From: Pachysolen tannophilus NRRL Y-2460
Lineage: Eukaryota
Reading direction: 5' to 3'
Assembly (NCBI GenBank): GCA_001661245.1
Contig: KV454011.1
Span: 1,558,834-1,622,833 of the forward strand
Length of the DNA stretch: 64,000 nt
Under the pieces are notes generated by a model. The model was not told the origin of the DNA. It worked only from the letters and a program-made list of their open reading frames with translations, and did no database searches. Positions within the stretch are counted from its first letter, which is position 1. Each line of letters starts with the position of its first letter. Both the position numbers and the translations under genes were made by a program. Positions 8,100-47,542 of the stretch are shown here, in pieces.

Positions 8100-9557
8100 T
8101 TAAAAAGTTCTAGGTTCCAACAATAGCTGACCCATTGAAACTTTTGAATGACCATTTTGAAATGAATATACTGAGTTACCTCTAACAATAGTTTCCATTA
8201 CTCTTCCAGTGAATTCAACACCATCAAAAGGAGTTAATTTATTTTTGAAAAAAGTCAGTTTATTAGAAACTGTGTATACAGCATTCGGGTCAAATATTGC
8301 AAAATCTGCATCCATACCTTCTTCAATTTTACCTTTTCTTTGTGATAACCCAACTTGTCTTGCTGTATTTTCCGAAGTCCATTTTGAGATTTCTATTAAT
8401 GAAACTGGTGGATCTTGCTTTGAACCTTCAGTCCATAATATTGGTAAACCAAACCCAACTGAAGCAATTCCACCCCATGCTGTGAAAAAATCACCTTTTT
8501 CCAACCCTTTTAACTCCCTAGTACATGGGGAATGATCTGAAACTACTGTTGAAATAATACCAGATCTTAATGCTTTCCAAAGCAATTTCCTATTAGATTC
8601 AGTTCTAATTGGAGGACAACATTTGAATTGTGTCTTACAATTTGCTATATTTTCAGCTGCTAATGATAGATAGTGGAAACAAGTTTCAACTGATAATTTT
8701 AAACCTTTTTCCTGTGCTGCTTTAATCAAAGGTACAGCTTCATGAGTTGCCAAATGGACTATATGCAATGGTACAGATGTTTCCTTAGAAGCACAAGAGA
8801 TAATTTCCGAAATGGCTTTGACTTCAAAACTATCAGGTCTAGAAGCCAAAAATGAAGAATAAGAAGTTGGATCAATTGAATCAAAATCATTCAGAATTTT
8901 TTCGTCAATATGATTTTTGCATTTATTGGAAATTTCTTGAAGACCAGGATCCGTTACCGGTTGCATTTCCAGATGGAACATCAACAACGTTGATTCTCCC
9001 TTAACTTTTTGCATAGCTTTATTAATATATGTTGGTGTAATTGCAGGAAATTCATCTACTCCCGATTCAATTAAAAACCCTTTGAAACCTCTTACACCTG
9101 CTTTTATCAATGGAATCAAATCATCCAAATTATCAGGAACTAAACCTCCCCAAAACCCTGTATCAACCCAAGTTTTATTTTTAGCGGCTTCCAATTTAAT
9201 GTTAAAGTTTTTAATATTGGTTGATGGTGGAATTGCATTTAAAGGCATATCAATAACTGTAGTGACACCACCACTTGCAGCAGCTTTTGTACCAGATTCA
9301 AAACCTTCCCAATCTGTTCTACCAGGTTCATTCAAATGAACATGGGCATCAACTAAGCCTGGCATTATCACGTATGGAGCCAAATTACGGTAATCGTCAG
9401 GAAAAACACCAAACTTTGCTAAAATAGAATCATCTTGAGATAGTACTTCACCTTTAACAATATGTAAAATTTTACCATTTTTTGATGAAAAAATTATAGT
9501 AGCCAGAATAACGTTACCATCTATAACAACTTTAGTAGATGAAATTGCATATGACAT
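8100..9557 (-). CDS. DAL1: Allantoinase (amidohydrolase superfamily)
   Basis: 'PGLVDAHVHLNEPGRTDWEGFESGTKAAASGGVTTVIDMPLN', 'FKCCPPIR', 'VSDHSPC', 'AWGGIASVG'. First ATG at 9557. Confidence 0.93.
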   Translation of the reverse strand: MSYAISSTKVVIDGNVILATIIFSSKNGKILHIVKGEVLSQDDSILAKFGVFPDDYRNLAPYVIMPGLVDAHVHLNEPGRTDWEGFESGTKAAASGGVTTVIDMPLNAIPPSTNIKNFNIKLEAAKNKTWVDTGFWGGLVPDNLDDLIPLIKAGVRGFKGFLIESGVDEFPAITPTYINKAMQKVKGESTLLMFHLEMQPVTDPGLQEISNKCKNHIDEKILNDFDSIDPTSYSSFLASRPDSFEVKAISEIISCASKETSVPLHIVHLATHEAVPLIKAAQEKGLKLSVETCFHYLSLAAENIANCKTQFKCCPPIRTESNRKLLWKALRSGIISTVVSDHSPCTRELKGLEKGDFFTAWGGIASVGFGLPILWTEGSKQDPPVSLIEISKWTSENTARQVGLSQRKGKIEEGMDADFAIFDPNAVYTVSNKLTFFKNKLTPFDGVEFTGRVMETIVRGNSVYSFQNGHSKVSMGQLLLEPRTF

Positions 9558-9707
9558 GATGACCTTATCTATAATCCCAAACAAACAAGACCTTATAAAC
9601 CACCACCAACCTTTTCGTTTTTTTATTATTCAAATCAATCGTTGAAATTTTTTGAATATGGATAGATAGTATGGTATTTTAAAACTATTTTTTTGGAAAA
9701 CGGTTTC

Positions 9708-9721
9708 TCGGTTATATCCGC
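9708..9721. promoter_or_regulatory. Candidate Ppr1/UaY-type Zn-cluster site (TCGG-N6-CCG) upstream of DAL1
   Basis: TCGGTTATATCCGC about 150 bp upstream of the DAL1 ATG; GATAA elements nearby. Confidence 0.5.
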
Positions 9722-10534
9722 TCTTTTCAGAATTCCGGGCCATTTATCAAGTTTGGTATTATACATATTGATTGTACTAAAGAGAGAAAGAGAGATAATG
9801 ATTTCTCACAAACCAAGATTAATTGATAACATTGTTAGTTTTCATGTGGTAAGAACTAGTATTAAGAAAAACAACACCTCTAATATTATAACTTTATTTT
9901 CCAAGTTCTACTATATGATCTTTCTTGTTTTTATTTTTTTGGCTATGAGAAGAAAGTAAAATTAAATGGAGCGCGCACTCATATAGTTATGAAGGAACAC
10001 AAGGATGAACAGCATAGATATAGATTTTTTTTTCACATTGCTTTTATTGTTCATGTTGACTGGTCAAAAAGATAGTTTTTGAACTCATTTTCTTGTGCAT
10101 TCTGAATTTACATGCTAAAATTAGTATTTAGTGTAGAAATAATATTAGTAATTAGTAAAAAGATCCACAGTTCTTAACTAGGTAAGATAAATAGTTGAGA
10201 CTAAAAATATTAGAATCTATCATAGATAAATGTGATTTTATTCTTGGTTCAACTCTGATTCCAAGGAAAGACAAGAAAGAATTCGGGGAACCAGATAGAC
10301 TATATTCTTGATCTTGGAAAAAGGTTTTGTCCAAAGACCATAAATAAAAGAAAAGAAAAGACAAAAAAANAAAAAAAAAAAAAAGAAACCCTCCTCCACC
10401 GGTTTTCAACGAATTTAACAATCAATCTGCAAACAGCAATCCGTGTCAAGATAACATTATACTTTGTTTGTTCTTCTTTTCCATGTAATTAATTCATGTA
10501 TGAATGAATGTATTTATGTGGTGCACAATTATGC

Positions 10535-10860
10535 NNNNNNNNNNNNNNNNNNNNNNNNNNNNNNNNNNNNNNNNNNNNNNNNNNNNNNNNNNNNNNNNNN
10601 NNNNNNNNNNNNNNNNNNNNNNNNNNNNNNNNNNNNNNNNNNNNNNNNNNNNNNNNNNNNNNNNNNNNNNNNNNNNNNNNNNNNNNNNNNNNNNNNNNNN
10701 NNNNNNNNNNNNNNNNNNNNNNNNNNNNNNNNNNNNNNNNNNNNNNNNNNNNNNNNNNNNNNNNNNNNNNNNNNNNNNNNNNNNNNNNNNNNNNNNNNNN
10801 NNNNNNNNNNNNNNNNNNNNNNNNNNNNNNNNNNNNNNNNNNNNNNNNNNNNNNNNNNNN
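10535..10860. other. Assembly gap (N run) flanked by a ~152-bp duplication
   Basis: 10382-10534 is repeated almost exactly at 10861-11012. Confidence 0.95.
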
Positions 10861-13800
10861 AAAGAACCCTCCTCCACCGGTTTTCAACGAATTTAACAAT
10901 CAATCTGCAAACAGCAATCCGTGTCAAGATAACATTATACTTTGTTTGTTCTTCTTTTCCATGTAATTAATTCATGTATGAATGAATGTATTTATGTGGT
11001 GCACAATTATGCTATACATATTATTGACATAGAATTGCTTTATCGAATAGCGCGGCGCAAGTTGAAGTTAAGTTTTTTCTTTTTTACTTTTTTTCTTTTT
11101 TCTTTATTTTTATTAATCCTATTTTTACTATAACTACAAGATTGATTAGTTTTGAAAAAAATTGAATATTGAATAGAGAATGTGATATCAGAGTAATCAT
11201 TCATGATTAATGAAAAAATTTGCAAAAAAATTTCATTCTCCAGTGTATCAGAAAGCAAATTTTAGGTATATAAATATTTATATATATATAATTGCCTTTG
11301 TTTGAATTTTATCCCGAGCGAGCATTATATTTTCTTTTTTTTTTTTTTTTTCTCTTCTAGTTTAAGTCTGAACGTCACTACACATAAGAGAAGCTTGCTC
11401 TACACCAAGTAGCTTTGGTTTACTAAATTCGTTCACTTGACTTATGTATTGCACATCGATTGATTATTGGGATCAGCAATAGTGGGTAACATTAAACCGT
11501 ATTACAAAGCCTTAAAAATAGAAAAATAAAAATAAAAAAAAAACAAATTGTCTGTAAAATTTTGGAAAAATCAAAAATTAGATATTGTTACTGATACTTT
11601 TATTAAAAGAATCAGTAAGCTGATACATATCGGTATCCTTAATTATTAGATAAAAGGGATCAATTTCTATTAGAAAAATCGTTAGATTATTTTTTTGGTT
11701 TTTTTGATTTTTGTGATTTTTTGTTCTTCGGGATTCATACATAGTTTGAAGCCAAAAATGCAACTTTTACTACTGCATGTAGTCGATACAAAAATTAGTG
11801 TTGATGTTTCACGCTTCAGACATTAGTTGAATTTTTTTTTTTTTTTTTTAGGGGAGGCGGTGAATAACGAAAAGACATATTTGTATGACCCATTAATAGA
11901 GTTAAGTATCCCATTAATATTTTTTCATTTGGGAAACAATAAACGGGGTTTTAATTCAACAATAAAGTTAAATAGTTTCTCATTAGACTTGAATGAATTA
12001 TCTTTCCTATTTATAAAAGAGATATAATTCTTAGTCATGCAAGGTTAAATACAATTAGTTCCCAAGCTCAATTCAATAATTTTTTTTTAAAGTTTATGGA
12101 TTTTTTAGTAACTTGTAATTATGCTTTGAAAAGGAAAATACACATCAAATAAATTGATTGAGAGTTGTTGAAAGATATATGCTATACTTTAAAAAAAAAA
12201 ATTGATTTCTCTGTATCTTTTTGAGACACCAACAACAAGAACAATAGATGAAAAGCCTACAAAATATTGGCAACATCTTTCTGCAAGATATATTCAAAAA
12301 TAAAGAAAACTTTTCGTGAATATATTTTATGAATTAAAAGGAAATCTTAATGTACATGTTATGTAAGCTTACTAATAACTAACAACAACCTGTTTTATTC
12401 ATCATCATCATCATCACATATATATATATATATATTTATACTGAAAATAAAGGGGGAAGGAGAAGAGAAAGAAGGGGGAGGAGGGGTGTTATTACAAGTA
12501 AAATATTGTTGAGAATTGAAATAAAGAAGAAAAAAAAAAATTTCCCAATTCTTTCAAGCATATTAGACTAAATAATTTCGATCAAAATTCAAGATTTATT
12601 CAGCTTAGCTCAAGATACAATTTAAAATTATTTCACTAAGGACAAATTGTTAATTGTTAAATGTAAGAAAAAAAAAAATTAGTATCTCAATGAATGCAAT
12701 GAATAAAATGAATAGCAGAAGAAGGAAGGAAGGAAGGAAAGAAGGAAGGAAAAAAAAAATAAAAAAGATCAAATGAATAAAGAAATAATATGTAGTCATC
12801 AGTGCAAAGTACAGTGTAACACCACAGCGCAATGTATTAAAAAGTATCTAATAATAAAAGTACATGAAATAGGCTGGATAGCTGCATCAAAGACTTCAGT
12901 TTTTTTGTCAAAAAGAGTAAAAAGAAAAAAAAAAAAGAAAAAAGAAAGAGAGAACAACTCTAGATCTCACTTTTCAATTAGAGTGAATTTTCCAATTGAT
13001 GATGATAGTAATTCGGAGTTTGACAACTTTTTTCAACCAAGTAATAGTAATAGTAATAGTAATAGTAATAGTATACAAGATTTCAGAACAAGGCCAAAAA
13101 AAGAAAAAAGAAAAGAAAAAGAAATCTAACTGTAAAAAAGTTCAAATTCCCGATAAATTTTTTTTTTTTTTTCTTTCTTTTTTTCCTTGAATAATTCTCG
13201 TCAAAAGCTGGAACTTCAAAGATATTATTTACCAGGGAAATCTGTTGGAATTTCAAGTTTACGCAGGACTTTTCTTTAAAAAAGTTGGAAGCCGAGTCCC
13301 GTAATCGCAGATATGCAGAAAGAGCAGAGATGAGGCTAATTGTTTATATATAACCGTTGCCGTACTTGTCTCTCCTTTTAAATAAAAAAAAAGATCTTCT
13401 ATAATTTCTGTAGGAATTTAAGAGTTCAAGTAAGTATTTATGTTTCGTAAAACAATTTACACAGATTATACCTTGATTGATTACATTTTAAATCTCAAAA
13501 TGTGATACATAATAATAATAATATTTTTTTTTTTTCCCGAAGGAATTGAGATGTACATACATATATCGTGTATTAGTGTTTGTTGAAGACAGACAAAAAG
13601 AAAGATAAATAAATAAAAATTACATCTCATAAACACTGGACCAAAATAGAAAAACCAAAACTGGCTTTCAAGCATATTTATTGATTTATCCAAAAACAGG
13701 GCGTAAAAAAAAAATTTTTTTTTTTTTATTTTTTTTTTACTTGTTTGTTTGTTTGTTTACATACAATCAATACTTTTCAACATGAGGAAAGAAAAAAAAA

Positions 13801-15967
13801 AAAATAAAATCAGTCACAAGAAAGAGAGAAGATTCACACACACACACACACATATACATTCAAACATATACTCAAACATATACACTGAGTCACTAGTAAA
13901 CTTTTTGGGGGTGATGTTCCGCAGATGTCATTAAAATTCCGATTGGTCCTAGTTTTCAATTCCAACAATTCTGTCTCAGAGTCTTTTTCTTGGGAAAAAA
14001 AAAAAAATAGGAGTTAGTACTCCGTAGGTACATGGCAGGCAGTATTCAGCAATAAATCAGCAACAATCAGCACAAGCATTCAGAACAGCATAAATCAGCT
14101 TTTTTTTTTTTTTTTGAACTCAATTCGTGCTTTTTAAGTTGCCTAGATCTTATTGTAGGGGGACAATCTCGAAATTAAACTCCTGTCAGCAAGTAACCCG
14201 TTCTGAAAAAAGAAAGAAAAAAAAAAAAAGTAATTATTATATGTACTGTGTTCTGCTGATGTCAACCTCAGTCAACCTCAACCACAACCACAACAATAAC
14301 AATAACAATAGCCTATATGCTTCAGCGCATTTTTGTAATTATAATAAAAAGACGAGGATTCAAAGTGACAGATAGATTTTTTTTTTTTTTTTTTTTTGCT
14401 TTCCTGATAGGTTCCATTCAGTTCCTACTGATATTTAGGATGCACACTTATCTTAAAAGTCTTTTTTTCTTTTTTCTTTTTTTGCTTTCTTTCTTTGTTT
14501 TTGCTTGGACAATATTAGGGGACAAATAATCTCAGAATGCCGCAAATACTACTTCAAAGGTAAATAAATAAATACGTACGTAAATTTTATCTACATTTAT
14601 TCGCAGATTGGAATTATTTTTACGTATATTTTTCCTTTCTTTGAGGACGGAAAATGACAACAAAAAAATATATTCAACCAAAGGTTAAGATACTGTTGCT
14701 GAAAATGAGCAAATATCAAAACTGCTGATTAGCCAAAGTGGGAGCAAAAAAAAAAAAAATAAAATAAAAAATAAAAAAATAAAATAAAAAATATACAACT
14801 ACTCCTGGATTCTCACTAATGTCTGTCTGTGTATACTATACTATGTATATATACAGATTTTAGTATAAGAATAATAAAAAGAGAGAAAGAAAGTGCTTCA
14901 TTCGGAACAATTTTATTTTCTCAGAATTTCAGAATTTCAGAATCTCAGTTAAAAAAAAAAAAAAAAAAAACAAAAGAAAACAAAGATAAATAATAATTAA
15001 AGTTTAACTCTATTTTCATGCTTCAGGACTTATAAGATTATAGTTAGCATAACCTTAATACCCACTATGAAAGAGGAAGACATTATGTACCCTAAAATGG
15101 ATAGTGATATTGAGTGATCTAACTTGATCTAATATTTATTTACACATTAAGTTTACTATCGACAAATAAATAAAAATAAAAAAAAAAAATTTTTTTTTTT
15201 TTAAAAACATGCCGTTTCTTATATATTGTACACGTATTCAAAACATTGCTTTAACCTCGGAAAATAACCATTTTCATTGCTCCCAAGATCAGTCGTTTTA
15301 TTGCGAGAAAAAAAACCAAAAAAAATTTAATAATACTACTAATATTTGATACCCTCCATGTACGTATGTATGCATCTTCAAGACTCCTACCTTTACAGCT
15401 GCTGGAAATGTAAAATTACTTGCATATGGTACTAATGTATTTCTGCATACTTTACTTTAGAGTTGAACTTTAATTTATTTCTTCTTTTTCTTCTTTCTCT
15501 ATTTTTGCAGGATCGAAATATGTTATTTTTTAAAATTAAAAAAAAATGTCTCTCTTAACAACGTTAGCTACGGTGTATTTTTTCTTCTTCAAGAGAATCT
15601 CTTTGGAGTAGAAAAATTATATAAACTTTCTTTTGTTTTAATATTTACTAACACAATTTTGATTTTTTGAAATATAATCTTTACTCCTTTCTGTTGTTCT
15701 TGTTCTTTTTCTTTTTTTCTTTTTCTCTTTTTCTCTTTTTCTCTTTTTTTTTTTTTTTTCTTTTTTTCTTTTTTTCTTTTCTCTCTTTCTTTCTTGTTTT
15801 TCCATTTCTTTAGTTTCTTTTAAAAAATTATTATATTATATGTCAAGAGAACACACGGGAATTCATTCATGTCTTTTTTATGTATTTTTTCTATTTATAT
15901 AAACAATTATTCTGTCTCCTCTTGTTAGTTACTTGTATATAAAAGATCAACAACAACACACAGAGAA

Positions 15968-16105
15968 ATGTCAGACAATAATCCAGCTTCTTATAGCGAT
16001 CGCAAGAACCTTCAGACAAATCCACAGACAAGCAATGTTTTCCCTTTCCAAGGGGGACCTCAGCAGCATCCACAAGCTCAATTGCTTCAACAATCTCAGC
16101 AATCT

Positions 16106-16140
<35 letters not shown>

Positions 16141-18151
16141 ACAACAGCAACTGGAACAACAATTTGTCAATACAAGTATGAATTTAGTACCGGGGGGTCT
16201 GATAACTTCAAATGTGCAGCAAATAAACCAGCTGCCTCAAGTAATTTCTCCCACAATTCATTATGAACAGCGTCAGCAACATCGACAACAACATCAACAA
16301 CAACATCAGCAGAGATTTCTGCCTGTGTTGACTGAAGAAGCACCACCCATGGGATTAACAACGGGACTGGCAGCTGGACTGACGGTCCCTCTGCCCGTGA
16401 AGCATTCAATTGTAAAATTGGCTAGAAGAAAAAGGGGTACCGCTAGAAGAAGTTCCTCTTCTTTACAACAAATAAAACCAACTCCTTCAAAACCTCAAGG
16501 ACGACCTTTGGCACTGCAAACAAAAATAAGATTAACTTTAGCTCCTTCATTGACTGCATTGTACGATTTATTGATTTCAGATCCAATTAAAAAACCTGTA
16601 AGAGTTTTAAAACATGGTATTTATGGTATAGAAGCAACAAATAAAGAATTGGAATTAGCAATTAGTCCAACAGAAACTCAACCATCACTTATTGTTAAAC
16701 AAGTGATATTCATTGATAATAATTTATATAGACCTGAATTTGATAGTCAACAAAGTTCTAGTATTCCAACTTTTACTTCAATCGATGATGCAATATATTC
16801 TTTGTATGGAATTTCTGAATATTCCTTATTAAGAGTTACAAGAGCAGCAGCTACTGAACCTGGAGGAGCTGTTTTATTAAAAGTTGAAACTGCAATGCCC
16901 GGTGATATTCATTTAAACGATGACGAATTTGATGATGTTCTCTTTACAGAAAATAATAATAGTCCAACTATCGATACACTCTTGGGGAAACCCGGTGATA
17001 GACCTACAACTACTTTTCTTAAAAAAAAAGTAGCAAGACCAAGATATAAATCAGATATGAGAATTTATTTTTTACCAAGGGCAACAAAAGCTGTATTATA
17101 TATAGAAGCTCGAATGCTTCAACGTGATCTTTTAAAAGGTATTTTAGATTTTGAAAAAGATGATAGGGCAATACTATGTGCATTTGAGTATGAAATAGTT
17201 TTAGACGAATTTAAAAGTCAAAGAGAATTAATTAGGCAACAAAAATTAGCAGTTGAATCATCACTTGGTAATAGAACTAATCCATTCGCAAATGTCCTTC
17301 CGCAGAATACATTAAGTTCCACATCACTGGCATTAACTCCAATCCCTTTTCAACAACAACAGCAACAACAGCAGATGTATTCCAATGCTCCAAGTAGTTC
17401 GACCGGTTCTTTAGCATCCTTCAACTTACCCAATCAGCAATTAGCTCAATTTGGTAATAATAATAATAATGCTATTAGTATTGAACAACAACAACAACAA
17501 CAACAACTGCTGCTGCTGCCACAATATTCACCTTCACTTTCTCAAGGACCTTCTGAGACCTATCCAATTTTAGAGCCGGGCCAAACACATTTCAGAAGTA
17601 ATTCCGAAGAACGACAGCGGGTGCCTTTCATGAGACAAGTTCCACATCTTGCAATGCTTCTGCCACACCAGCAGCAGTTTGCTCAACAATACCTGCCACA
17701 ACAATTTTACTTTCAGCCGCAACATCCTCAAACTCAACCCCAAACGCAAACCCAGAACCAGCAGCAACTACAACTACAACTGCAACTGCTGCTGCTGCTG
17801 CTGCTGCAACAACAACAACAGCAACAAACTTATGTACAACAGTACTATCAACAACAACAACAACAACAACAACAACATTCAATCTCCCAACCTCAACAAC
17901 AATTTACATCTACACCATTAATGATTCCCCCTCCACAATCGTTTAATCCTCCTACAATGCCTGCTACAAGTTCAGGTTCAGCTGCTATGACCTCGGCAGA
18001 AGGCAACCAGGGAAGCACAACCGGTGACACTACCTATTTGCCCTCCCAACAATCGTTATATATTAATACCAACCCTCCTGGTACTGTATTTCCACCTAAT
18101 CAAGATTTTTCTACAGATTCATCATCTTCATCCCCACATTTCAAAAAATAA
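15968..18151 (+). CDS. Gln-rich putative regulator resembling Candida Aaf1/Cad1 (adhesion/aggregation factor)
   Basis: PolyQ N- and C-termini flank a central folded domain with 'KLARR', 'QTKI' and 'ARPRYKSDMRIY', recalled as similar to C. albicans AAF1. Preceded by a very long promoter. Confidence 0.55.
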
Positions 18152-18322
18152 CCAATTCGCTTTGTCATTTTTGACTCGCGAACTCAATCACTTATTATTA
18201 TTAAAAAAATACATTCAAAAGAAAATTAAATTACCTACTGTTTTTACGCTACTATAGAATTGTACTTTTATATTTACATTACATTTGGACGACCACTAAC
18301 CTTATATTAATTAATTAGTTAA

Positions 18323-18357
<35 letters not shown>

Positions 18358-20308: not shown

Positions 20309-20343
<35 letters not shown>

Positions 20344-23600: not shown

Positions 23601-24146
23601 ATGGCTGAAGTTAATAGATATTGCTTATTATTTTTGCTTTTTGTTTCAACTATTGTTGCGCTTCCCTTTAATGTTATAAGTCCTTTTCTTAAGGAGGTAG
23701 CAGCAGCTTTACCAGGTGAAAAGCCTGTTCCAGGTGATTCTCCAGTATCTATTTGTGATTCTGATCAAGCTCAGATTTTGTCTTTGACTTCATTAGTGAT
23801 TTCTCCAAATCCTCCTGTTAGAAACCTGAATTTAACGATAAGCGCTCTTGGTGTCTTAGATAAGACTATTGAAGATGGCGCTTACGTTGAGGTTGATGTT
23901 AGATACGGTTATATTAAGTTATTGCACCAAATCTTTGATATCTGTGAAGAAATCCAACAAGTCAATATGACTTGTCCAATTGAGAAAGGTGAACATGATA
24001 TTACAAAAGAAGTTGAAATTCCAAATGAGGTTCCTCCAGGTAAATATGTCGTTTACGCTAGAGCTTATACAAAAGATGACGAATTTATCGCTTGCATTAC
24101 TGGTACTGTTGAGTTCCCTATCCAAAACGGAATCTTTGGCTTTTAA
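23601..24146 (+). CDS. NPC2: ML-domain sterol/phospholipid transfer protein
   Basis: Signal peptide, 'PGDSPVSIC', 'PNPP', 'VEVDVRYGYIKLL', 'CPIEKG', 'IPNEVPPGKY'. Confidence 0.9.
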   Translation: MAEVNRYCLLFLLFVSTIVALPFNVISPFLKEVAAALPGEKPVPGDSPVSICDSDQAQILSLTSLVISPNPPVRNLNLTISALGVLDKTIEDGAYVEVDVRYGYIKLLHQIFDICEEIQQVNMTCPIEKGEHDITKEVEIPNEVPPGKYVVYARAYTKDDEFIACITGTVEFPIQNGIFGF

Positions 24147-24413: not shown

Positions 24414-25748
24414 CTAAAAAGTTTCAACCACAACTGTATTTTCCGTTCTTGAAGAATTCGTACCCATAAGTGGATTCAACGATTCATCTTGTTTATTGTT
24501 ATTATTAGAGTTATTATTGTTATCATTTATCAGTATGTCCTGTAAAGACTCAATCTCTTGATAATTTGAACTGTCATTGGCAACACCTCCTTGTAAAAAT
24601 TTAGTTGGATTCAGCAAATCATTTTCAATTATTGAATTATAAATTGCTATTCTTTTCTTAATTTTTTTTAATTGAAATTTAATTGGTAAAAACGGTATAT
24701 AACCATGTTTTTCCAGATATAATTTTGTCTTTAATACAATTATTACAAAAAGCCAATACAGGTTATAACTTATTACCGAACCATATGTTGCTGAATTGGT
24801 CCAACCTAAGAGTGCATTAAATAACATCCATCCACCATCAGTTAACCCATTACAACAATTGACATGCCAAATCGAATTCACAATATCATAAGATCCTGGT
24901 CCTGATCCAACTTCTGACATATCTTGACCATTACATCTTCTAACATATTGCTCCAACTCTAAAAACCAAACACCTCTTGACATCAATCCTGCAGAAACCA
25001 AATATAAAAAACAACTTGAAAGTATTAAAAAATATTTTAATGACAATTTCATGCTACCTCTATACAAGGAAACTCCAATAATTGCACCTATAGAGCCACC
25101 GGCTATTACTGCTAATGGAACAGAAGACAGAGGTGCACTGGCACCTATACCACCCACAAATACAACAGCTTCTAAACCTTCTCTTAAAGTTGTAACAAAT
25201 GGTAATAAACCTAAAGCATATTTTCTAGTAAATTTCTTAAAATATATTGTAATTTTTTTAAGTAAAGATAATTTATGTTGTTCAATAACTAAACCTCCTG
25301 CTCTTACTTCATCATTATCGCTTTCAACATTTGAATCTAAAGATTTTTGTAATTTATATTTCCACTTGATTTGCAACTGATTTATTCTCAATAATGCTAA
25401 ACCCATAACACTTATTAATAAAGAACTTAAAACACTAAATATTCCTTCCCATAATCTCTCTGTTAATGACCACAAATCATTTCCTATAAAATAAAAAACC
25501 AACACGAAAAAACCTCCCAAGAAAAGACATATCGATAAACCAAAAAGACTTCCAAGCCAAACTTGTAATCGTAAATTTCTATAAGTCCTATCAGGAATAG
25601 TTAATTCTACTTTGCCTGTTATCGGATCATGAATAGTGTAGTTCTGTTTTAAAAACGACAATAATACCGATATTATTATCGACGATTCAAGTGTCTCTCT
25701 TAATATTATGAAAAATATTTGAACCGAAAAATAATCCCCAAACACCAT
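24414..25748 (-). CDS. FTH1: FTR1-family iron permease, vacuolar Fth1 type
   Basis: Two RExxE motifs (RETLE, REGLE), 'GQDMSEVGSGPGSYD', 'WHVNCCNG', 'LGWTNSATYGS'. Confidence 0.85.
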   Translation of the reverse strand: MVFGDYFSVQIFFIILRETLESSIIISVLLSFLKQNYTIHDPITGKVELTIPDRTYRNLRLQVWLGSLFGLSICLFLGGFFVLVFYFIGNDLWSLTERLWEGIFSVLSSLLISVMGLALLRINQLQIKWKYKLQKSLDSNVESDNDEVRAGGLVIEQHKLSLLKKITIYFKKFTRKYALGLLPFVTTLREGLEAVVFVGGIGASAPLSSVPLAVIAGGSIGAIIGVSLYRGSMKLSLKYFLILSSCFLYLVSAGLMSRGVWFLELEQYVRRCNGQDMSEVGSGPGSYDIVNSIWHVNCCNGLTDGGWMLFNALLGWTNSATYGSVISYNLYWLFVIIVLKTKLYLEKHGYIPFLPIKFQLKKIKKRIAIYNSIIENDLLNPTKFLQGGVANDSSNYQEIESLQDILINDNNNNSNNNNKQDESLNPLMGTNSSRTENTVVVETF

Positions 25749-25916
25749 CTCTCCACCGATCTTTTATCTTCAACTGAAAATATTCTAACTTTACCTATTG
25801 TAAATAGCAACTATCAATATTTCAAGCAACGATTTATTTTATCAACTAGTGCAAGACATCAATTTTTTCCAATGAGTTTCTTTATGTATGTTTTCAAAGT
25901 TTTTTCTTTTACCGAA

Positions 25917-36822: not shown

Positions 36823-37048
36823 CCACGTCAAAGTAAAAACTCTTATCTATTCCTTCAACGTTTTATTTTCCGCTTAAACCTTTAAGCGCCATTGAATAAA
36901 TATATATTTAAATTTAAATATTTTTAAATATATTTTTTTTTCTTTTAGGTAAAGAATTCTGCATGTCTGTTTTCTTCAATTTCAAATTGTTATTCTATTT
37001 AAAAGAGTGAAAGAAACAAGAATAAATACACGAGAAGAGAAGAAAAAA

Positions 37049-38503: not shown

Positions 38504-38818
38504 AAACTAGATCTAGCTAAACCCAAGACACACACTGTTTTTTTTTTTTACATTTATTATTATCTTTTTTTCTTGTTTTGTTTCTTGCTGGTCAATATCA
38601 ATCAATGTAAAAATTACAAAAACCGTTGTTATGTTTAAATACAAATTCAACTCTTTTCATGGTTTGGACGGGTCACTAAAAATTCGAATTTTTGGATGAA
38701 AAAAAAAAGGTGAAAAAAAGGTGAAAAAAAAAATTATATAAAAATATATATAATATATATATAAATATTTAAAGGTTTATTTAAATAAATAGAAGAAGAA
38801 AGAAGTTAGAGAGGTTAG

Positions 38819-38874
38819 TAGAGTATAGTATAGTATAGTATAGTATAGAAGAGAAGAGAAGAGAAGAGAAGAAA
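38819..38874 (+). repeat. Compound pentanucleotide microsatellite (TAGTA)n/(GAAGA)n just upstream of MRPL22
   Basis: agtat repeats followed by agaag repeats immediately before the ATG. Confidence 0.7.
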
Positions 38875-38876
38875 AG

Positions 38877-39845
38877 ATGAATAGAGTATCTATGTATATG
38901 GCATCTTCAGCAGTTAGACTAGCGAGCGTGCCGGTTAATAGACGGTTTCTGGTTGTGTCTATAAAGTCAAAATCATTTCATACTAGTTATTTAAGTTTTG
39001 ATTCGAATTCATCATCATTGTTTGGGAATATCACCAAGTCGACATTTGAAAGAAAAGCAGAGCCAGAGAGAAATGTTAGTTTGAATGTGAATAGTGCAGA
39101 GACTGGTGTTGATCATGGTGTTGACCGTGGTTCTTCTGATGAAACAACTACTATTGAATATGTAGATCCAAAAGATGATGGGAAATTACAAGAATTTTTA
39201 CATAAGAAACCAGTAGTTGCTATTGATAAGTTACTTTCTCCTTTAAAGAAGAAGATTTATTTGAAAAATGTTGGTAAAAATGGGTTTTTCAAAAATAATG
39301 ATGAAGTTATCTTAGAAGATAATACTAAATATCGTCTTCGATTAACATATGATGAAATTGAAGCTTTAGAACCTTCAATATATTTAAAATCTTATAGAAT
39401 CAAATCTTCAATGAAAAAGCTGATGGTTATGTTGAGATTACTTAGACATAATATGGAGTTAAAAACTGCGATTACTCAATGTCAATTTATGAATAATAAA
39501 AAAAAAATTGCTCATGAAGTTTATAATTTATTATCTCGTGGACTTGAACAATCTGAAAAATTAGGTTATCAAGGTTCAAAATTATATATTTCACAAATTT
39601 GGACAGGATCAGATGGTTATTGGTCAAAGAGAATTGAATGTAAAGGAAGAGGAAGAAATGGGTTAATTAGACATAGATATGTACATATTAAATGTATTGT
39701 AAAAACAGATCAAACTTTGAAAAGATTGGCATATGAAAAGGAACAAAAATTGAAGAAAAAAATTGAAGATGGTTCTAAAATTGATAATATGAGTTTGAAA
39801 AACCAGCCAATTAGATCTCAACCAAGTGGTTTTTACAAATGGTGA
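38877..39845 (+). CDS. MRPL22: Mitochondrial ribosomal protein uL22m
   Basis: Presequence; 'EIEALEPSIYLKSYRIKSSMKK', 'LYISQIWTGSDG', 'KGRGRNGLIRH'. Adjacent to RPS3, as in other yeasts. Confidence 0.9.
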   Translation: MNRVSMYMASSAVRLASVPVNRRFLVVSIKSKSFHTSYLSFDSNSSSLFGNITKSTFERKAEPERNVSLNVNSAETGVDHGVDRGSSDETTTIEYVDPKDDGKLQEFLHKKPVVAIDKLLSPLKKKIYLKNVGKNGFFKNNDEVILEDNTKYRLRLTYDEIEALEPSIYLKSYRIKSSMKKLMVMLRLLRHNMELKTAITQCQFMNNKKKIAHEVYNLLSRGLEQSEKLGYQGSKLYISQIWTGSDGYWSKRIECKGRGRNGLIRHRYVHIKCIVKTDQTLKRLAYEKEQKLKKKIEDGSKIDNMSLKNQPIRSQPSGFYKW

Positions 39846-40007
39846 AACGTATAATTGAATAATTAAATCATGTAAATAAATAAAATTTGTTTATAGTTTA
39901 TGTTAAAAGTTAAAAAAATAAAAAAAAAAAGAATAAATAAATAAATAAATAAATAAATAAATTAAATAAATAAAATAAAATAAATAAATTTGGGATTAGT
40001 TTAAATT

Positions 40008-40364
40008 TCAATCATCATAACCTTTTAAATTCTTATCTCTTGCTCTTCGTGGGATGGGATACCCATTGACTGGCAATGGTACATGATCCTCGTACAAAAA
40101 TTTCCTTCTAACAGGAGTTACCACAAAGATGAAAACAGGACCAAGAGCAGCAATTGCCGTTGCATAGAAAACATAAGGACGAGTATGAGCATGATAACTC
40201 AACCACTAAAATTAATTAAATGAAAAGTAATTTGTTAGTTTCAAAAATCAACTAAAGTTTTTTTTTCTTGGCTTTTGGCTTTTGGCCTCACCAGAATTTA
40301 TATATATTTAACATACCCTAAATGGTTGTTTATAGTAAACAGGATAATCACCCAATGATGACAT
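40008..40364 (-). CDS. NADH:ubiquinone oxidoreductase 9.5-kDa accessory subunit (NI9M/NDUFA3-like), 2 exons, 81 aa
   Basis: Exon 1 40364-40317 (MSSLGDYPVYYKQPFR); intron 40316-40206 (GTATGT...AACTAAC...TAG); exon 2 40205-40008 (WLSYHAHTRP...GPVF...YPIPRRARDKNLKGYDD). Confidence 0.82.
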
Positions 40365-40733
40365 GTGACGTTTATTGATTAACAATGAAATACTTAACGA
40401 TAAATTTGAATTTAATTGAATATAATATAATATAAATTATCTTTTATTTAATATTGAGGTTTAAATTTTTTCTATAAAATTATTTTTTATTTTTTAAATG
40501 TGTGTTTTTCACTACAAAACGATTTCTTCCCGCTAAATGAAAAGATAGCATAGAATAGAACTTGGTTTAGATAAACATATATTTGAGCTAAATAATAAAA
40601 GTAAGATTAGATTGGATTCCACATCAAGGAGAGGAGATTAAAAAATAAGTTAAATTAAATTAAAGAATGAATAAAAGACTGTTTAATTTTTTTTTTTTTG
40701 TTTGTCTCATTTTTGAAAAAAAAATAAAACAAT

Positions 40734-41384
40734 TCAGGTTTTCTTTATACTTTTTTTACCACTAGAAGTTTTTTCACGAACTTCACTTCCACTTGCCTTT
40801 GCACTATCAACACCACTTTCTTTATCTTGTTGTTCTTGTTTTTTAGCCTTTTCCTTTGCTTCATCTTCATAAAATTTCTTTAACAGTCTTTCATTTTCCC
40901 AATTTGCATAGTATAATCCACCTTGTAAAACCAAGACTCCAACCAATACAAACACAATCATTGTTTGACTAGCAGCAATGACGTTTATACCTGTCTTTTC
41001 ATCCACATCACCCCATTGTCTCAGAATTGCACTTTGGATTCCAATTCTAATATTGGTTAAATAAACAACAACAGCAACCATGTATAAAAATAACGTACCA
41101 TATTCAAATAATTTTGTTTCTTCAGATGGTTTATAAATCTTGATAAAACAACCAATGAAACCTATACCAAGAACTGCATGGAAAGTGTGCACAATGAAAA
41201 GAGGTGATGAACCTAAAGTCTGATAATGTTGTAATGAATTCAGGAAAGTTTTATCTGTTGGTAAGATCTTTGAGTATAAAGTTGAATAATCATATGGCCA
41301 ATTCGAAAAGATAACACCAAGAGCAAACGATGTAGCTGCAACAATAAGAGTGGTGCCTACCGGCACAATGTCTTTATAAGCCAT
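40734..41384 (-). CDS. SHR3: ER chaperone for amino-acid permeases
   Basis: 'ATSFALGVIFSNWPYDY', 'IKIYKPSEETKLFEYGTLFLY', 'WGDVDEKTGINVIAASQ', lysine-rich tail. Confidence 0.9.
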   Translation of the reverse strand: MAYKDIVPVGTTLIVAATSFALGVIFSNWPYDYSTLYSKILPTDKTFLNSLQHYQTLGSSPLFIVHTFHAVLGIGFIGCFIKIYKPSEETKLFEYGTLFLYMVAVVVYLTNIRIGIQSAILRQWGDVDEKTGINVIAASQTMIVFVLVGVLVLQGGLYYANWENERLLKKFYEDEAKEKAKKQEQQDKESGVDSAKASGSEVREKTSSGKKSIKKT

Positions 41385-41653
41385 TCTAAGATAAAAATAT
41401 AATATATTAAAAGATAATAATAATAAAAATAATAATAATAATTAGATAACAGACTAATTTGTTTATATTTTTTTTTTTTTTTTTTTTTTTTCAACGTCGT
41501 TTTACAGATTAGTTAGTAAAAGTAACCAAAAAAAAATCGAAAAATTTACTTTTTTATTTTTTACAATGAATTTCGTTCGTTAATTTTTTATTATATATAT
41601 ATATATATAAAAAAGAATAATCAAGAAACAATTGGGGAAAAAAAAGAATTAAC

Positions 41654-42382
41654 TTAAGCTTGGACAGCTTCTTCTTCAACTTCTTCAGCGGTAGCAGAAG
41701 GTTTGTAATCTTTAGCGTATGGGGCTGGAACTTCTTCATCTTCCTTTGGTTCAATAACTCTAACGGAATCTGGTAAAGATTTTGGACCAACTCTGCTTGT
41801 AGCTGGGTCTCTCATAATCTTGACCTTAATACCCAAGACACCTTGTTTCATCAAAACATGTCTAGTGGCAGTATCAATGAAATCTCTTGTTGGTTGACCA
41901 GAATGGATCATGAAACCATCAGCAAATTTCATTGATTTAGCTCTAGCAGCTCTCAACTTACCTGAAATGACAACTTCAACACCTTTAGCACCAGATTCCA
42001 TAACGAATCTAACAACACCATAAGCAGCTCTTCTAATAGCTAAACCATTTAATAATTTATATCTTAAAGATTCACATTGAGCAACAGCAGATAAACCACG
42101 GTCTTGAACTCTTTCAGCGTACAAGACAATAGAACCCGGTTGGAACTTGAATCTTTTTTGGATCAAGGAAGTAAGTTCCTTAATTCTTCTACCATTTTCA
42201 CCTAAAACAGCTTGAGTATGAGTAGCTCTAATAATAACTTCAGTTTTAGAAGGAGTAATTCTAACTTCAACACCAGAGTAACCTTCTTCAGCAAGTTCTC
42301 TTGTGAAGAATTCATTCAACTCGGCGTAAAAGACACCGTCAGCTACGAGCTTTCTCTTTTTGGAAATAATAGTGGCAACCAT
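41654..42382 (-). CDS. RPS3: 40S ribosomal protein uS3
   Basis: '[41 protein letters not shown]', '[14 protein letters not shown]'. Strongly biased codon usage. Confidence 0.97.
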
Positions 42383-43013
42383 TTTTAACAATCAGTAAAT
42401 TATAATTATAAATTAATAATGTGAACTTATAATAATTATAATAATAATAATAATAATGATAAAATATTTCATATATTCTTTCTTGGTTAGAAAAGTGAAA
42501 AATTTTTTTTTTCATTCCAACTCAAAATCTATTTGCCCGAAACACGCAAAAATGTGTTTGGCAGAATTGTCGGTCGTGTGCGTGGGAAAACAAAAAATCA
42601 AAAGGACGGGTAACGTGGAAGGTATCCGAAAAAAAAAAAAGAACCCCAAAACAATTTAAAGCCCCTTTTGTATTTTAAAAACCCTCACTCTAGGGGCTAT
42701 ATTACGTTATTCTTTAAGTAAGTATAGTTACGTGTCATTAATGGCGGACTAAATTAAAATCTCATGTCACATTAACATGACATGCTGTTATTAGTTCTGT
42801 CGTTATTTGTAGTTGTCGTCGTTTAGAAACGTCGTGTGGGCGCCAACCAATTATTTTTATTGCAAACAAAATAAAATCATTCGATAGATACAAAGCGGTT
42901 ACCGTGCTTGTACGCCTTGTATTGGTCAAATCTTGAATCCATATCTATATAATAAAACTAATAGTAATAGTAATAGTACTAGTAATGATTGGTAATTGTA
43001 GTATCTGTAGTGG

Positions 43014-43070
43014 TATTAGTATTAGTAGTAGTAGTATTAGTAGTAGTAGTATTAGTAGTAGTATTATTAC
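43014..43070 (+). repeat. (TAG/TAT)n microsatellite in the RPS3-RAC1 intergenic region
   Basis: tattagtattagtagtagtagtattagtagtagtag... Confidence 0.7.
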
Positions 43071-43364
43071 TTCTAGGTGTATTTGTAGTGCTTGTTTCTC
43101 TGAATCTGTTGTTTTCTTGTCCTTTTATTTATATATATGAGAAAAAAAAAAGGTGATAGAATTTCATAGTGGAAATAAAAAAGGCTGGGAAACAAATGTT
43201 TATTTCATACATAAACATATAACAATAATATATATTTTTATAATTATAAACTAATACATATATTTTTTACTACAATTTAGTTTTGCTTCTTCTGGTTTCC
43301 AAAATTAATTGAGTATATATATATATATATATTTATATATAAATAAATATAAATATATTCTACA

Positions 43365-43433
43365 ATGAGAAGTATTAAATGTGTTGTTGTCGGTGACGGG
43401 TATGTACATATTATATTATATTATACTATATTG

Positions 43434-43464
<31 letters not shown>

Positions 43465-44487
43465 ATGTGCACATAATTCAAATTGCAAAAGTACCTCAAT
43501 ATACTAACAAAGACTATATGATGATTTTTATAAAATAGAGCTGTTGGTAAGACTTGTTTATTGATCAGTTATACTACAAACAGTTTTCCTCATGATTATA
43601 TTCCAACTGTGTAAGTTTTATTTTGTTTTTTTGTTTTTTTGTTTTTTCTTCTTCTTTTTCTCTCCTTTCCCTTTCCTTCCTCCTCATGAGCCGCCCGCCG
43701 CCCAAGATAAGAAAGAAAAAACATGAAAATCTCCCCTGAAAAATTAATTTTTTCATCCTTACTAACAAATTTGAATTTTTTTTTTTTTTTTTATTAAATC
43801 AGTTTCGATAATTATTCTGCAAATGTTATGGTTGATAACCAACCGATAAAGTTGGGTTTATGGGATACTGCAGGTCAAGAAGAATATGATAGATTAAGAC
43901 CACTTTCTTATCCACAAACAGAAATTTTTATAGTTTGCTTTTCAGTAGTGGAGCCAACTTCTTTTCAAAATATTAAAAATAAATGGATTCCAGAGATAAG
44001 ACATCATTCAACTAAAGATATTCTTATATTATTGGTTGGAACAAAGATAGATCTTAGAGATGATCCTCATACTTTAGATAATTTACAAGAAATGGGTCAA
44101 CTGCCAATATCTGAAGCTCAGGGGAAAAAATTGGCAAAAGAATTAGATTGTATTGAATATTTAGAATGTTCAGCAGCTACAAGACAAGGTGTTGAAAATG
44201 TCTTTGACTATGCAATTAAAGCTGTCTTAAACCCACCAAATAGTAGTGGAAATGGTGGTGTTGTCGGTAACGGCACTACCGGTGCTGGTACTCTGAATGG
44301 AGGAACGGGTGTTGTTGATGGTATTGGGGAAAGTGGACATAACACAGGCGAAAACGAAAAAAATAATGGTGTTGCTAATGGATCTGGAGGAAATGCATTA
44401 AGAGGTTCATCAAGAGCAAATAATACAGCAAATGGAAGTCTAGGTAAAAAGAAGCCTAGAAAAGTTAAAAAATGTGTTATTCTCTGA
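43365..44487 (+). CDS. RAC1: Rac1/Rho5-family small GTPase, 3 exons, 263 aa
   Basis: Exons 43365-43399, 43539-43610 and 43803-44487 splice to [47 protein letters not shown]...[20 protein letters not shown], ending in the CAAX box CVIL. Confidence 0.9.
43400..43538 (+). other. Spliceosomal intron 1 of RAC1/RHO5
   Basis: GTATGT donor, TACTAAC at 43502, TAG acceptor; splicing restores the GDGAVGKT P-loop. Confidence 0.9.
43611..43802 (+). other. Spliceosomal intron 2 of RAC1/RHO5
   Basis: GTAAGT donor, TACTAAC at 43760, poly-T, CAG acceptor; splicing restores the PTVFDNY effector loop. Confidence 0.9.
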
Positions 44488-44988
44488 TAAACCAACCTTT
44501 TTTTTTCCCCTGAATTTTGAAATGTTTATCTTTCTTTCCCGGTGTTGTGTGCTGTTGTAAGTCAGCTGTTTTCATAGATGCTTAATTTTTTGAATTTTTG
44601 AATAAAAAAAAAAGAAAAAAAAAAAAGAAAAACAAACAATAATTACAAAAGATGTTTTTTAAAAATAAAAAAAAAAATAATAAAATTAATTATAAAATGA
44701 TTGATTCTCGAAGTTGTTAACTAATTGTCAAGTTTTTTCTTTAATCGTTGCCATTCCCGTCCTGCTATTATGCTTTTTTTTTTATTAATCATTCCTTTTT
44801 TTTATTAATTAATCAATGCTGGCAATTCTTTTTATTTTGGGCAAGAAAAATTAAGTAAAACTTATCTAAAAAAAATAAAAAAAAAAAAAAAAAAAAATTT
44901 TAATTTAATTTAATTTAATTTTAATAATATATATATATAATTTCTTGCTTGATACACATATATACATAATTATATTTAGTATTAAGCC

Positions 44989-45714
44989 TTATTTAATAAA
45001 CTTTGCTCTTGAAGGATGAACATTATTTGAACCAAGTGTAATTTGTTCTTTTGAAGTTTCTTCGCCATTTCCTGTTTCTTGATTTTTTTCCTTTTTATCT
45101 CTTTTCTTATTTTCCTCAGTTATAATTTTATTTCTTCTTTCGATTAATAATTTTTCATTTTTTAACTTAATTTTTTCTAATCTATTCTCTGAATTTCCAC
45201 CTCCTCCAACAGTTAATTCAACATTTATCTTCCTATTTCTTAATAGAGAATGATGCATAGCAAGTGCAATATCAATTTTTTTCCTAATATCATCATTAGT
45301 ACTATAAAATTCCATAAACGCTATTCCTTTCTCCAGTCTAAGTCTTATCCTATCTGGTTTTGATTTTTGAAAATGTTTCATAAGTTCATCATTGGTAACA
45401 TCATATGGTAAATTCCCAATAAATAAAATAAATCTAGGCCCACCACCAGATTGCAGTGCAAGTCCTTTCCCCTTCTTACCTCTACGAGTCTTACGTTTTT
45501 TCGGTAAAACTTCTCCTAAACCATCCTTGGTCTCTTTAAATTTCTCTTTTTTTTGAAGTTGATCATTTGTTGTATCTATTATATGTCCTTCATGGTTAAT
45601 CGGTACCTCATCTCCGTCTTCAATATCAGTAGATTTTTTAGATTTCTTTGTACGAAAATCCAACGCTTTTTTCTGTTTCTTGGTTAATTTCTTTATAGAA
45701 TCTCCTCCTCCCAT
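44989..45714 (-). CDS. NOP6: Nucleolar RRM protein for 40S biogenesis
   Basis: 'RFILFIGNLPYD', 'KGIAFMEF', 'RKINVELTVGGGGNSENRLEKIK', C-terminal 'VHPSRAK'. Confidence 0.85.
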   Translation of the reverse strand: MGGGDSIKKLTKKQKKALDFRTKKSKKSTDIEDGDEVPINHEGHIIDTTNDQLQKKEKFKETKDGLGEVLPKKRKTRRGKKGKGLALQSGGGPRFILFIGNLPYDVTNDELMKHFQKSKPDRIRLRLEKGIAFMEFYSTNDDIRKKIDIALAMHHSLLRNRKINVELTVGGGGNSENRLEKIKLKNEKLLIERRNKIITEENKKRDKKEKNQETGNGEETSKEQITLGSNNVHPSRAKFIK

Positions 45715-46054
45715 TATCAAGAATTATATATTAAAGGTCAAATGATAGAATTTCACTTCTATATCATATATATATATAAAAATAAAAAGTTATATTACTC
45801 AACAACACCTATAAAATAAAAATAAAAAAAAGCAAAAAATTGTTTAAAAAAAAAAAATTTTTTTTTTCACTTCTTCTGCATAAAAATCTCAAATGTGAAA
45901 AAAAAAAGAAAAAGAAGAAGAGTAACAACGACAACAAAAATAAGAGATAACAAAAAAAACAGAAACTCAGAAGTGCAAGTGTGATTCTAATTGAGTAACC
46001 GTAATTATAAAAAATCGTTTCATGGAGTTATTTTTTTTTTTTTTTTTTGGTTGT

Positions 46055-47542
46055 TTAAGCTCCTTTTAGTCCAACAGACAACCCCTTTTCAATTCTTCTG
46101 TGGGTTAAAGCAGCAGCTACAGCAGCACCGACACCTGAACCATCTTCTGATGGAACAATTTGTATTGGATAGTCTTCAGGTTTCAAACCTTGTAGCTTCC
46201 AATCAAATATGTCTGCAAGACCATCTACAGCTCTGGCTGGGAAGTTTGTATAATGGTTGAAAACAGATCCATCTGCAGCACAATGACATTTTAAATAATT
46301 CATTTTCTTTGTTACAGCAGCAATACCACAAATAGATAATCTTGCAGCTCTTGTACCGATTAATTCAGCTAATTTTCTAATTAATTTTCTTTCAGGTGAA
46401 GTAAATTCTAGATGTAATTTTTCTTTAAACAAAGTACAAGTATCTTCTAAATTTTCGAATGGATCATCTTCAATTCTAGTTAATACTTCAGTATCTAAGA
46501 TATATGGTTCATTTAATAATTTAATACCTTCATTATCAGATTTATATTTTTCTAAAATTAAATTTTTTTCATAAAGTTCTACCAAGATTAATCTTAATAC
46601 TTCACCTAAATAATATCCAGCAATCATTTTTTCAAACAGTTGTTGATTTGGTCTTGGACTTTGCAGATCAATAATAATATCATATTTTGTTCTAGGTAAT
46701 GCCAAATGTTCATTATCAAATGAACCATACTCACAATTGATCAACATTGGTGAATCTTGGGTAATATCATCTTGTAATTTACCAGCCAATTTTGGAATGT
46801 TATGAATACGATCATAATAAGCACCATTACAACCAGTACCAAAAATTAACCCCATTTCTGTTGCAGGATCAGTATATCTTGAAGCAACTAAAGTACCTGA
46901 AGTATCATTAATCAATGCAACAAGTTTAACTGGTACTTTTCTTTTTTCAAATTGAGAAACAAGCATTGGAACAACATCATAACCTTCAACACCTGGAATA
47001 TCAAAACCTTTTGTCCATCTTTGAAGTACACCTGTATCAATACGTGATTGAGTACAAGGATAAGAAAATGTAAAACCTAATGGTAAGATTTTACCCTTTG
47101 GAACTCCATTTGGATATAAATCATTAATAAATTTAGCAACACTATCTGCAATATAAGAAAATAAAATATCTTTATCTCTTGTAGTTCTAATATCTGATGG
47201 AAGATGATATTTTGATTGTTCAGTATCAAATTTACAATTTCCTAATAATTTAACTAGGACAACTCTTAAATTGGTTCCACCTAAATCAATTGCCAAATAT
47301 TCACCAGTTTCTTCACCAGTTGGATAATCAACAATCCATGTTGGAATCATTGGAATATTACCACCTTTAACTGAAAGACCTTTTTCAAGTTCTGAAATAA
47401 AATGATCGGTAATCTTCTTCAATTTTTGAGGAGAAACAGTAAGTAACTCTTGATATTTTGCCAATTCATCCATTAAATTTCTAGGAACATCGGCCATAGA
47501 TCCTTTTCTTGAAGGTGGTCTCTTTGGACCCAAGTGAAACAT
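46055..47542 (-). CDS. HXK: Hexokinase (Hxk1/Hxk2 type)
   Basis: 'MFHLGPKRPPSRKGSMADVP', 'LAIDLGGTNLRV', 'PLGFTFSYP', 'LQRWTKGF', 'INCEYGSFDN', 'EDGSGVGAA'. Confidence 0.95.
   Translation of the reverse strand: MFHLGPKRPPSRKGSMADVPRNLMDELAKYQELLTVSPQKLKKITDHFISELEKGLSVKGGNIPMIPTWIVDYPTGEETGEYLAIDLGGTNLRVVLVKLLGNCKFDTEQSKYHLPSDIRTTRDKDILFSYIADSVAKFINDLYPNGVPKGKILPLGFTFSYPCTQSRIDTGVLQRWTKGFDIPGVEGYDVVPMLVSQFEKRKVPVKLVALINDTSGTLVASRYTDPATEMGLIFGTGCNGAYYDRIHNIPKLAGKLQDDITQDSPMLINCEYGSFDNEHLALPRTKYDIIIDLQSPRPNQQLFEKMIAGYYLGEVLRLILVELYEKNLILEKYKSDNEGIKLLNEPYILDTEVLTRIEDDPFENLEDTCTLFKEKLHLEFTSPERKLIRKLAELIGTRAARLSICGIAAVTKKMNYLKCHCAADGSVFNHYTNFPARAVDGLADIFDWKLQGLKPEDYPIQIVPSEDGSGVGAAVAAALTHRRIEKGLSVGLKGA

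Follow-up and report, generated by a model that had tools for sequence, protein, structure and literature searches.

CTG codons in a 64-kb window of the Pachysolen tannophilus NRRL Y-2460 genome: alanine decoding under a known code, with modest homology support from the window itself

Introduction

The reading of CUG as alanine in Pachysolen has been a textbook case since 2016, being the second sense-codon reassignment known from the nuclear genome of a eukaryote, and it serves as evidence for codon capture driven by the loss of a transfer RNA (tRNA). Here, we describe the CTG codons of a 64,000-nt stretch of DNA from Pachysolen tannophilus NRRL Y-2460 (assembly GCA_001661245.1, contig KV454011.1, positions 1,558,834–1,622,833 of the forward strand), which is referred to in full as the window and from whose first nucleotide all positions below are counted. 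An initial annotation of this DNA had assigned it to the CUG-Ala clade (NCBI translation table 26) based on five CTG codons, located in the genes encoding the allantoinase Dal1, Npc2, MrpL22, Nop6, and a hexokinase, at which homologs were stated to have Ala.

The tRNA with anticodon CAG (tRNA(CAG)) of strain NRRL Y-2460 has A73 and G3:U70 as alanine determinants and is described as lacking a long variable arm; like leucine tRNAs, it retains a G37 beside the anticodon (Muhlhausen et al. 2016, PMC4937558). According to the same report, liquid chromatography with tandem mass spectrometry placed Ala at 97.2% of 907 fully supported CUG positions in this strain, deviations from Ala were no commoner than deviations at the unambiguous AUG, and the genome contains 16,824 CUG codons in 4,210 of 5,288 genes (PMC4937558). 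The Ala clade has been delimited as Pachysolen, Nakazawaea, and Peterozyma (Krassowski et al. 2018, PMC5951914), and the program Codetta has been validated on 462 yeast species, with the CUG-Ala category included (Shulgina and Eddy 2021, PMC8629427).

Two further groups of budding yeasts have changed the same codon. In the CUG-Ser1 yeasts (Candida, table 12), CUG was likewise captured by a tRNA with anticodon CAG, and new CUGs arise at sites unrelated to the ancestral Leu CUG sites (PMC4937558); the residue there is Ser, whereas in our window none of the conserved Ser columns holds a CTG, and six of the 20 amino acids outrank Ser. The CUG-Ser2 yeasts (Ascoidea and Saccharomycopsis) represent a third independent CUG change (PMC5951914; PMC6041473), with two competing tRNAs and mixed decoding, whereas Pachysolen is reported to read CUG essentially unambiguously as Ala (PMC4937558). 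Compared with table 26 as described, the window has the same organism and the same codon, its public annotation has Ala, and its CTG codons avoid conserved columns of Leu and Ser; CTG is only weakly linked to conserved Ala here (1 of 18 columns), as opposed to the CUG codons found "mainly at conserved alanine positions" in PMC4937558, and nothing differs in kind.

Results

The open reading frame (ORF) encoding a V-ATPase subunit a of the Vph1 type had as its best match, among 120 homologs listed, PACTADRAFT_48037 from P. tannophilus NRRL Y-2460, with all aligned positions other than CTG being identical; the public P. tannophilus proteins have Ala at all of the CTG sites in Vph1 (8/8), in the iron permease Ftr1 (5/5), and in the chaperone Shr3 (3/3). 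An exact look-up in NCBI and UniRef retrieved the table-26 translations of four of the five flagged ORFs (hexokinase, Dal1, Npc2, and Nop6) and none of the five translations made with the standard code (table 1). The MrpL22 translation had no exact match in these databases under table 26 or table 1, presumably because the gene model differs. As exact matches were obtained only with table 26 and Ala is present at the CTG sites, the public annotation already reads CTG as Ala. The Vph1 match and the four exact matches also place the source genome in the Ala clade as defined in PMC5951914. The initial annotation was thus right about the clade and the code, with Ala found at every CTG site examined in the Pachysolen proteins; its description of the code as rare but already described agrees with the publication of CUG=Ala for this same strain in 2016 (PMC4937558) and with the existence of NCBI table 26. 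The window is almost certainly nuclear DNA of the budding yeast P. tannophilus (NRRL Y-2460, or an assembly identical to it), from a cell that reads CTG as Ala. This is a re-discovery of table 26 in its type organism and is already known; the tRNA(CAG) with its alanine determinants and the finding of Ala in peptides are taken from the literature (PMC4937558).

A total of 27 ORFs of at least 150 aa with an ATG start were found in the window, including two overlapping duplicates, and the CTG census covers the remaining 25. These contain 104 CTG codons among 14,454 codons, and 21 of the 25 have at least one. Homologs were aligned with MAFFT (fast settings) for four families, with 118 homologs retained for Vph1, 119 for Ftr1, 113 for Shr3, and 150 for Dal1 after exclusion of the self-match and of a relative with 72% identity. 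Vph1, Ftr1, and Shr3 were picked by the number of CTG codons within conserved domains, before the columns were seen, while the Dal1 family was picked because of the claim made in the initial annotation; 18 of the 20 CTG codons in the four families fall in columns with enough occupancy.

Columns were termed conserved when one residue is shared by at least 80% of the homologs. CTG was found at none of 88 Leu-coded conserved Leu columns (7.9 expected; p = 2.5e-4) and at none of 40 Ser-coded conserved Ser columns (4.2 expected; p = 0.011). The clear result is that CTG is neither a working Leu codon nor a working Ser codon in the window. Over the 18 alignable columns, which the initial annotation would have expected to be mostly Leu or Ser if it were wrong, Leu is the commonest residue in three and Ser in one, and in this single Ser column 80 of 150 homologs are gapped. 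The commonest residue is Leu, Met, Val, or Pro in six of the 18 columns, and Ala is present in at least 80% of homologs in one; CTG-coded Ala is depleted from conserved columns of every kind, those of Ala included.

Log-odds summed over the 18 columns were highest for Ala (−0.22 nats), followed by Glu (−5.85), Met (−7.04), Leu (−7.37), Val (−7.40), Asp (−7.97), and Ser (−10.14), so that Ala ranks first of the 20 amino acids, with a lead of 5.6 nats over Glu and 7.2 nats over Leu, and Ser ranks seventh. As a control, the same procedure correctly decoded 57 of the 60 other sense codons, the three misses having 1, 4, and 6 columns. Ala remained first in all 18 leave-one-column-out runs and in three of the four leave-one-family-out runs. 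The CTG columns show above-average variability (mean entropy 2.20 vs. 1.51 nats), and in entropy-matched comparisons the Ala-minus-Leu difference (+7.15 observed) was +33.7 (standard deviation 3.3) for true Ala codons and −20.4 (standard deviation 4.1) for true Leu codons; the observed Ala-Leu and Ala-Ser differences were never reached in entropy-matched bootstraps, of which 2000 were drawn from true Leu codons and 2000 from true Ser codons. By these measures, CTG resembles the ordinary codon of no amino acid. Ala is the best-fitting single assignment of CTG in these alignments, carried largely by codon 196 of Dal1, and the unselected signal for Ala in the window is above chance yet modest.

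This Dal1 codon is the sole CTG located at a conserved Ala, Leu, or Ser column, with Ala in 131 and Cys in 8 of 150 representative homologs; among solved structures, Ala is present in 3hm7 (Bacillus halodurans allantoinase) and 1gkr (L-hydantoinase), and Cys in two E. coli allantoinases. All five flagged codons were checked and are in frame, at the positions and in the contexts listed in Table 1. The residues at these sites in homologs were determined with CTG masked as X, and the query was therefore unable to bias the alignment. The Ala that the initial annotation had given was found in the closest solved homolog at four of the five sites. Apart from Dal1, these are hexokinase codon 302 (Ala in K. 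lactis Hxk1 and S. cerevisiae Hxk1, Thr in S. cerevisiae Hxk2, Leu and Arg in the two halves of human HK2), MrpL22 codon 182 (Ala in S. cerevisiae uL22m, Val and Met in two other mitoribosome chains), and Nop6 codon 127 (Ala in S. cerevisiae Nop6, chain 2mzj_A, in the motif RLRADKGIAF). The exception is Npc2 codon 76, which gives Ala no support because S. cerevisiae Npc2 (chain 6r4m_A, the sole solved homolog found) has Glu there.

Table 1. Positions of the CTG codons and CTG-containing features in the 64,000-nt window.
Feature	Position	Strand	ORF	Context or content
CTG codon 196 of Dal1 (allantoinase)	8970–8972	−	8100–9557	FH[CTG]E; adjoins motif His
CAACTR hexamer repeat, then (CTG)7	17762–17806	+	15968–18151	Q-rich ORF with 23 CTG codons and no Pfam match
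CTG codon 76 of Npc2	23826–23828	+	23601–24146	N[CTG]NLTI
Ftr1/Fth1 iron permease ORF	24414–25748	−		5 CTG codons
CTG codon 182 of MrpL22 (uL22m)	39420–39422	+	38877–39845	SSMKK[CTG]
Shr3 chaperone ORF	40734–41384	−		3 CTG codons
CTG codon 127 of Nop6	45334–45336	−	44989–45714	LR[CTG]EKGIAF
CTG codon 302 of hexokinase	46637–46639	−	46055–47542	QQ[CTG]FEKM
V-ATPase subunit a (Vph1/Stv1-type) ORF	61430–63868	+		8 CTG codons

The search for solved homologs covered nine proteins with 23 CTG codons, 12 of which were aligned to the best match; the residue in the best solved homolog was Ala at five of these sites, Glu at three, Asp at two, Leu at two, and Ser at none. The fifth Ala site is codon 92 of a Rac-like GTPase (Ala in Rac2, Thr in Rac1), and the four proteins that had not been flagged gave Ala, Asp, Leu, and Glu. 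The PDB alignments of the ABC transporter and Mlh3 contributed one weakly aligned CTG site each (D/Y and E/Y, respectively), the remaining CTG codons of these two proteins lying beyond the alignments.

The CTG columns themselves hold a variety of residues. In the 118 other yeasts, those of Vph1 have D/E, F/Y/L, K/N/R, L/M (codon 415), E/A/D, M/F/A, and V/C/A. In Ftr1, columns 207, 330, and 345 have L/P/A, A/L/G, and E/Q/D, while column 379 is half gaps and codon 406 is unaligned; in Shr3, columns 48, 121, and 167 have E/D/A, T/S/V, and L/I/A.

Several observations weigh against Ala as the residue encoded by CTG. When Dal1 is removed (14 columns left), Ala falls to fourth place (−3.82 nats), after Met (−2.40), Leu (−2.96), and Val (−3.48), with the four leading residues within 1.4 nats. 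With all families included, the Ala sum is near zero, as compared to +15.9 (5–95% range, 11.0–20.8) for entropy-matched sets of 18 true Ala codons, and CTG is under-represented at conserved Ala columns (1 of 30; 5.0 expected; p = 0.028). Several individual columns are hydrophobic, including Vph1 415 (L in 86 and M in 30 of 118 homologs), which is located within the otherwise L/M-only FGD-x-GHG motif, Shr3 167 (L 48, I 33, and A 18), and codons 145 of the MATE transporter (L, L, V) and 25 of MrpL22 (L). In the flagged genes, apart from this MrpL22 codon and the Glu at Npc2 76, the homologs have Asp at Dal1 434 and, at the second CTG of hexokinase (codon 293, 46664–46666), Glu in all three yeast enzymes. 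Four of the five Ala sites in the solved homologs are sites that the initial annotation had picked, and its five sites were hand-picked from the 104 CTG codons in 25 ORFs; the support for Ala from the window alone is moderate and weaker than had been implied.

Measures that need no alignment added little. The mean hydropathy of the eight neighbors of CTG was −0.45 (89 codons with enough scorable neighbors, in 24 ORFs), which did not differ from that of Leu (−0.30; p = 0.27) or Ser (−0.32; p = 0.30) and differed from that of Ala (−0.08; p = 0.004), thus speaking, if anything, against Ala; we take this measure as uninformative, since it does not separate Leu from Ser either. Per-ORF CTG density showed no significant relation to Leu, Ala, or Ser content (for Ala, rho = −0.38, p = 0.07). 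Runs of CTG in the Q-rich ORF and in a Zn-cluster factor (51327–54257) were also considered as a test of the code and rejected, as both poly-Ala and poly-Leu are possible in such low-complexity sequence and the runs do not discriminate. The repeat of the Q-rich ORF listed in Table 1 reads caa cta caa cta caa ctg caa ctg (ctg)6 caa, which table 26 translates as QLQLQAQAAAAAAAQ; in its first part (CAACTA CAACTA CAACTG CAACTG, 17762–17785), a Leu codon and CTG differ in the third base only. In the same ORF, a CAA tract leads into (CTG)4 at 17507–17518, and under table 26 the CTG runs of this ORF are poly-Ala beside poly-Gln.

Two observations concern the homologs. Leu was found at Ser columns conserved in at least 80% of homologs in 29 Ftr1 homologs (P0144, P0239, and 27 others), mostly proteins derived from assemblies, in up to eight columns (P0144), which is the mark expected of CUG-Ser yeasts translated by the standard code; such mistranslated homologs slightly inflate the Leu counts in any column tabulation. 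The 72%-identical relative (P0002) was screened for Leu at conserved Ala columns, which would mark a mistranslated CUG-Ala relative; it has Leu at 1 of 17 such columns, the same as one other homolog, and this is too few to be of use.

The window is AT-rich yeast DNA, with a GC content of 0.27–0.35 per 4 kb, and its 331 N are spread over three runs, of which 10535–10860 is the longest; one of the 25 ORFs analyzed (10500–10970) is an artefact crossing the N stretch. Pfam names most of the ORFs, with families including a Kap104-type importin, an allantoinase, an ABCG-type transporter, Npc2, Ftr1, Mlp1, MrpL22, Shr3, Rps3, a Rac-like GTPase exon, Nop6, a hexokinase, Mlh3, a Zn2Cys6 factor, an agmatinase-type enzyme, a MATE transporter, an allantoin/uracil-type permease, and a V-ATPase subunit a. 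Four ORFs contain no CTG, namely those encoding the Kap104-type importin (5031–7820; 929 aa with 120 Leu), Rps3 (41654–42382), the agmatinase-type enzyme (54490–55857), and the allantoin/uracil-type permease (58994–60700). No tRNA gene was found in the 64-kb window by ARAGORN, and there were no Rfam matches.

Three further features of the region were noted. The 6.4 kb between Dal1 and the Q-rich ORF (9558–15967), which include the longest masked run, contain no convincing ORF, as only five ORFs of at least 70 aa are present, three of them crossing the N stretch and two of low complexity; gaps of this length are unusual where yeast genes are densely packed, and a repeat, a centromere-like element, and withheld sequence are candidates. 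The Rac-like ORF (43828–44487; E of about 1e-53 to human Rac) begins at the equivalent of residue 45 of Rac1, Rac2, and Cdc42 and must therefore represent exon 2 of a Rac-like GTPase gene; it has a long Gly/Asn-rich insert ahead of its CAAX end. The Vph1-type protein has 828 aa as deposited, as compared to 812 aa for the ATG-to-stop ORF, which probably reflects an extra 5′ exon in the public gene model.

Discussion

If CTG were an ordinary, rare Leu codon under the standard code, with Ala at the flagged sites being a coincidence, the Leu-rich columns at Vph1 415, Shr3 167, Ftr1 207, MATE 145, and MrpL22 25 would be explained, as would the slightly higher sum for Leu than for Ala once Dal1 is left out (−2.96 vs. 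−3.82 nats). However, such a codon should have occupied about eight of the 88 conserved Leu columns, where CTG is absent, and should have given an Ala-minus-Leu difference near −20.4 instead of +7.15; in addition, none of the standard-code translations is public, as compared to four of the five made with table 26, and published mass spectrometry found Ala in the same strain (PMC4937558). We consider the standard code extremely unlikely. Decoding as Ser, either as in Candida (table 12) or as in the Ascoidea and Saccharomycopsis clades, has in its favor that the substitution profiles of Ser and Ala are alike and that Shr3 121 (T/S) and Dal1 434 (E/A/D/S) score Ser equal or better. Its probability is nevertheless next to nil, with Ser 9.9 nats under Ala in seventh place, CTG missing from all 40 conserved Ser columns (4.2 expected), Ser at none of the 12 sites in the best solved homologs, and Pachysolen belonging to the Ala clade rather than to a Ser clade (PMC5951914).

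Dual decoding, in which CTG would be mostly Ala with a meaningful share of Leu, comparable to Ser/Leu in Ascoidea asiatica, could account for the approximately one third of CTG columns that are hydrophobic in other yeasts and would fit the G37 that the published tRNA keeps adjoining its anticodon, as leucine tRNAs do (PMC4937558). The reported Ala at 97.2% of 907 CUG sites, with deviations no commoner than at AUG, and the description of tRNA(CAG) as lacking a long variable arm (PMC4937558) make this very improbable. A weaker form, in which low-level Leu insertion at CUG would still matter at a few Leu-like sites (e.g., Vph1 415), the residual ambiguity being averaged out by bulk proteomics, is also improbable, with a small chance of being correct. 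Decoding of CTG as Ala is almost certainly the correct reading.

With CTG read as Ala, the distribution of the codon could be explained by codon capture following loss of a Leu tRNA, as argued in PMC4937558, which fits the CTG pattern. The old Leu CTG codons would have been purged, so that none would be left at conserved Leu columns, and the present CTGs would be later products of point mutation at positions where Ala is tolerated. A single base separates CTG from codons for Leu (TTG, CTN), Met, Val, Pro, Gln, and Arg, but two separate it from any GCN codon; new CTG-Ala codons are therefore expected mostly where a site varies or once encoded Leu, Met, Val, or Pro, and only rarely at conserved Ala. 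Most CTGs in the window thus appear to be evolutionarily young and located at variable sites or where other yeasts have Leu, Met, Val, Pro, or acidic residues, which may be why CTG is rarely found at conserved Ala.

In a 64-kb sample, homology supports Ala only to a modest degree, and choosing conserved sites by hand makes this support look stronger than it is; beyond this caution, the known CUG=Ala case is not extended here. For the translation of P. tannophilus genes, the standard or bacterial table (1 or 11) puts Leu in the place of Ala at all 104 CTGs, affecting 21 of the 25 ORFs, and this genome should therefore be translated with table 26.

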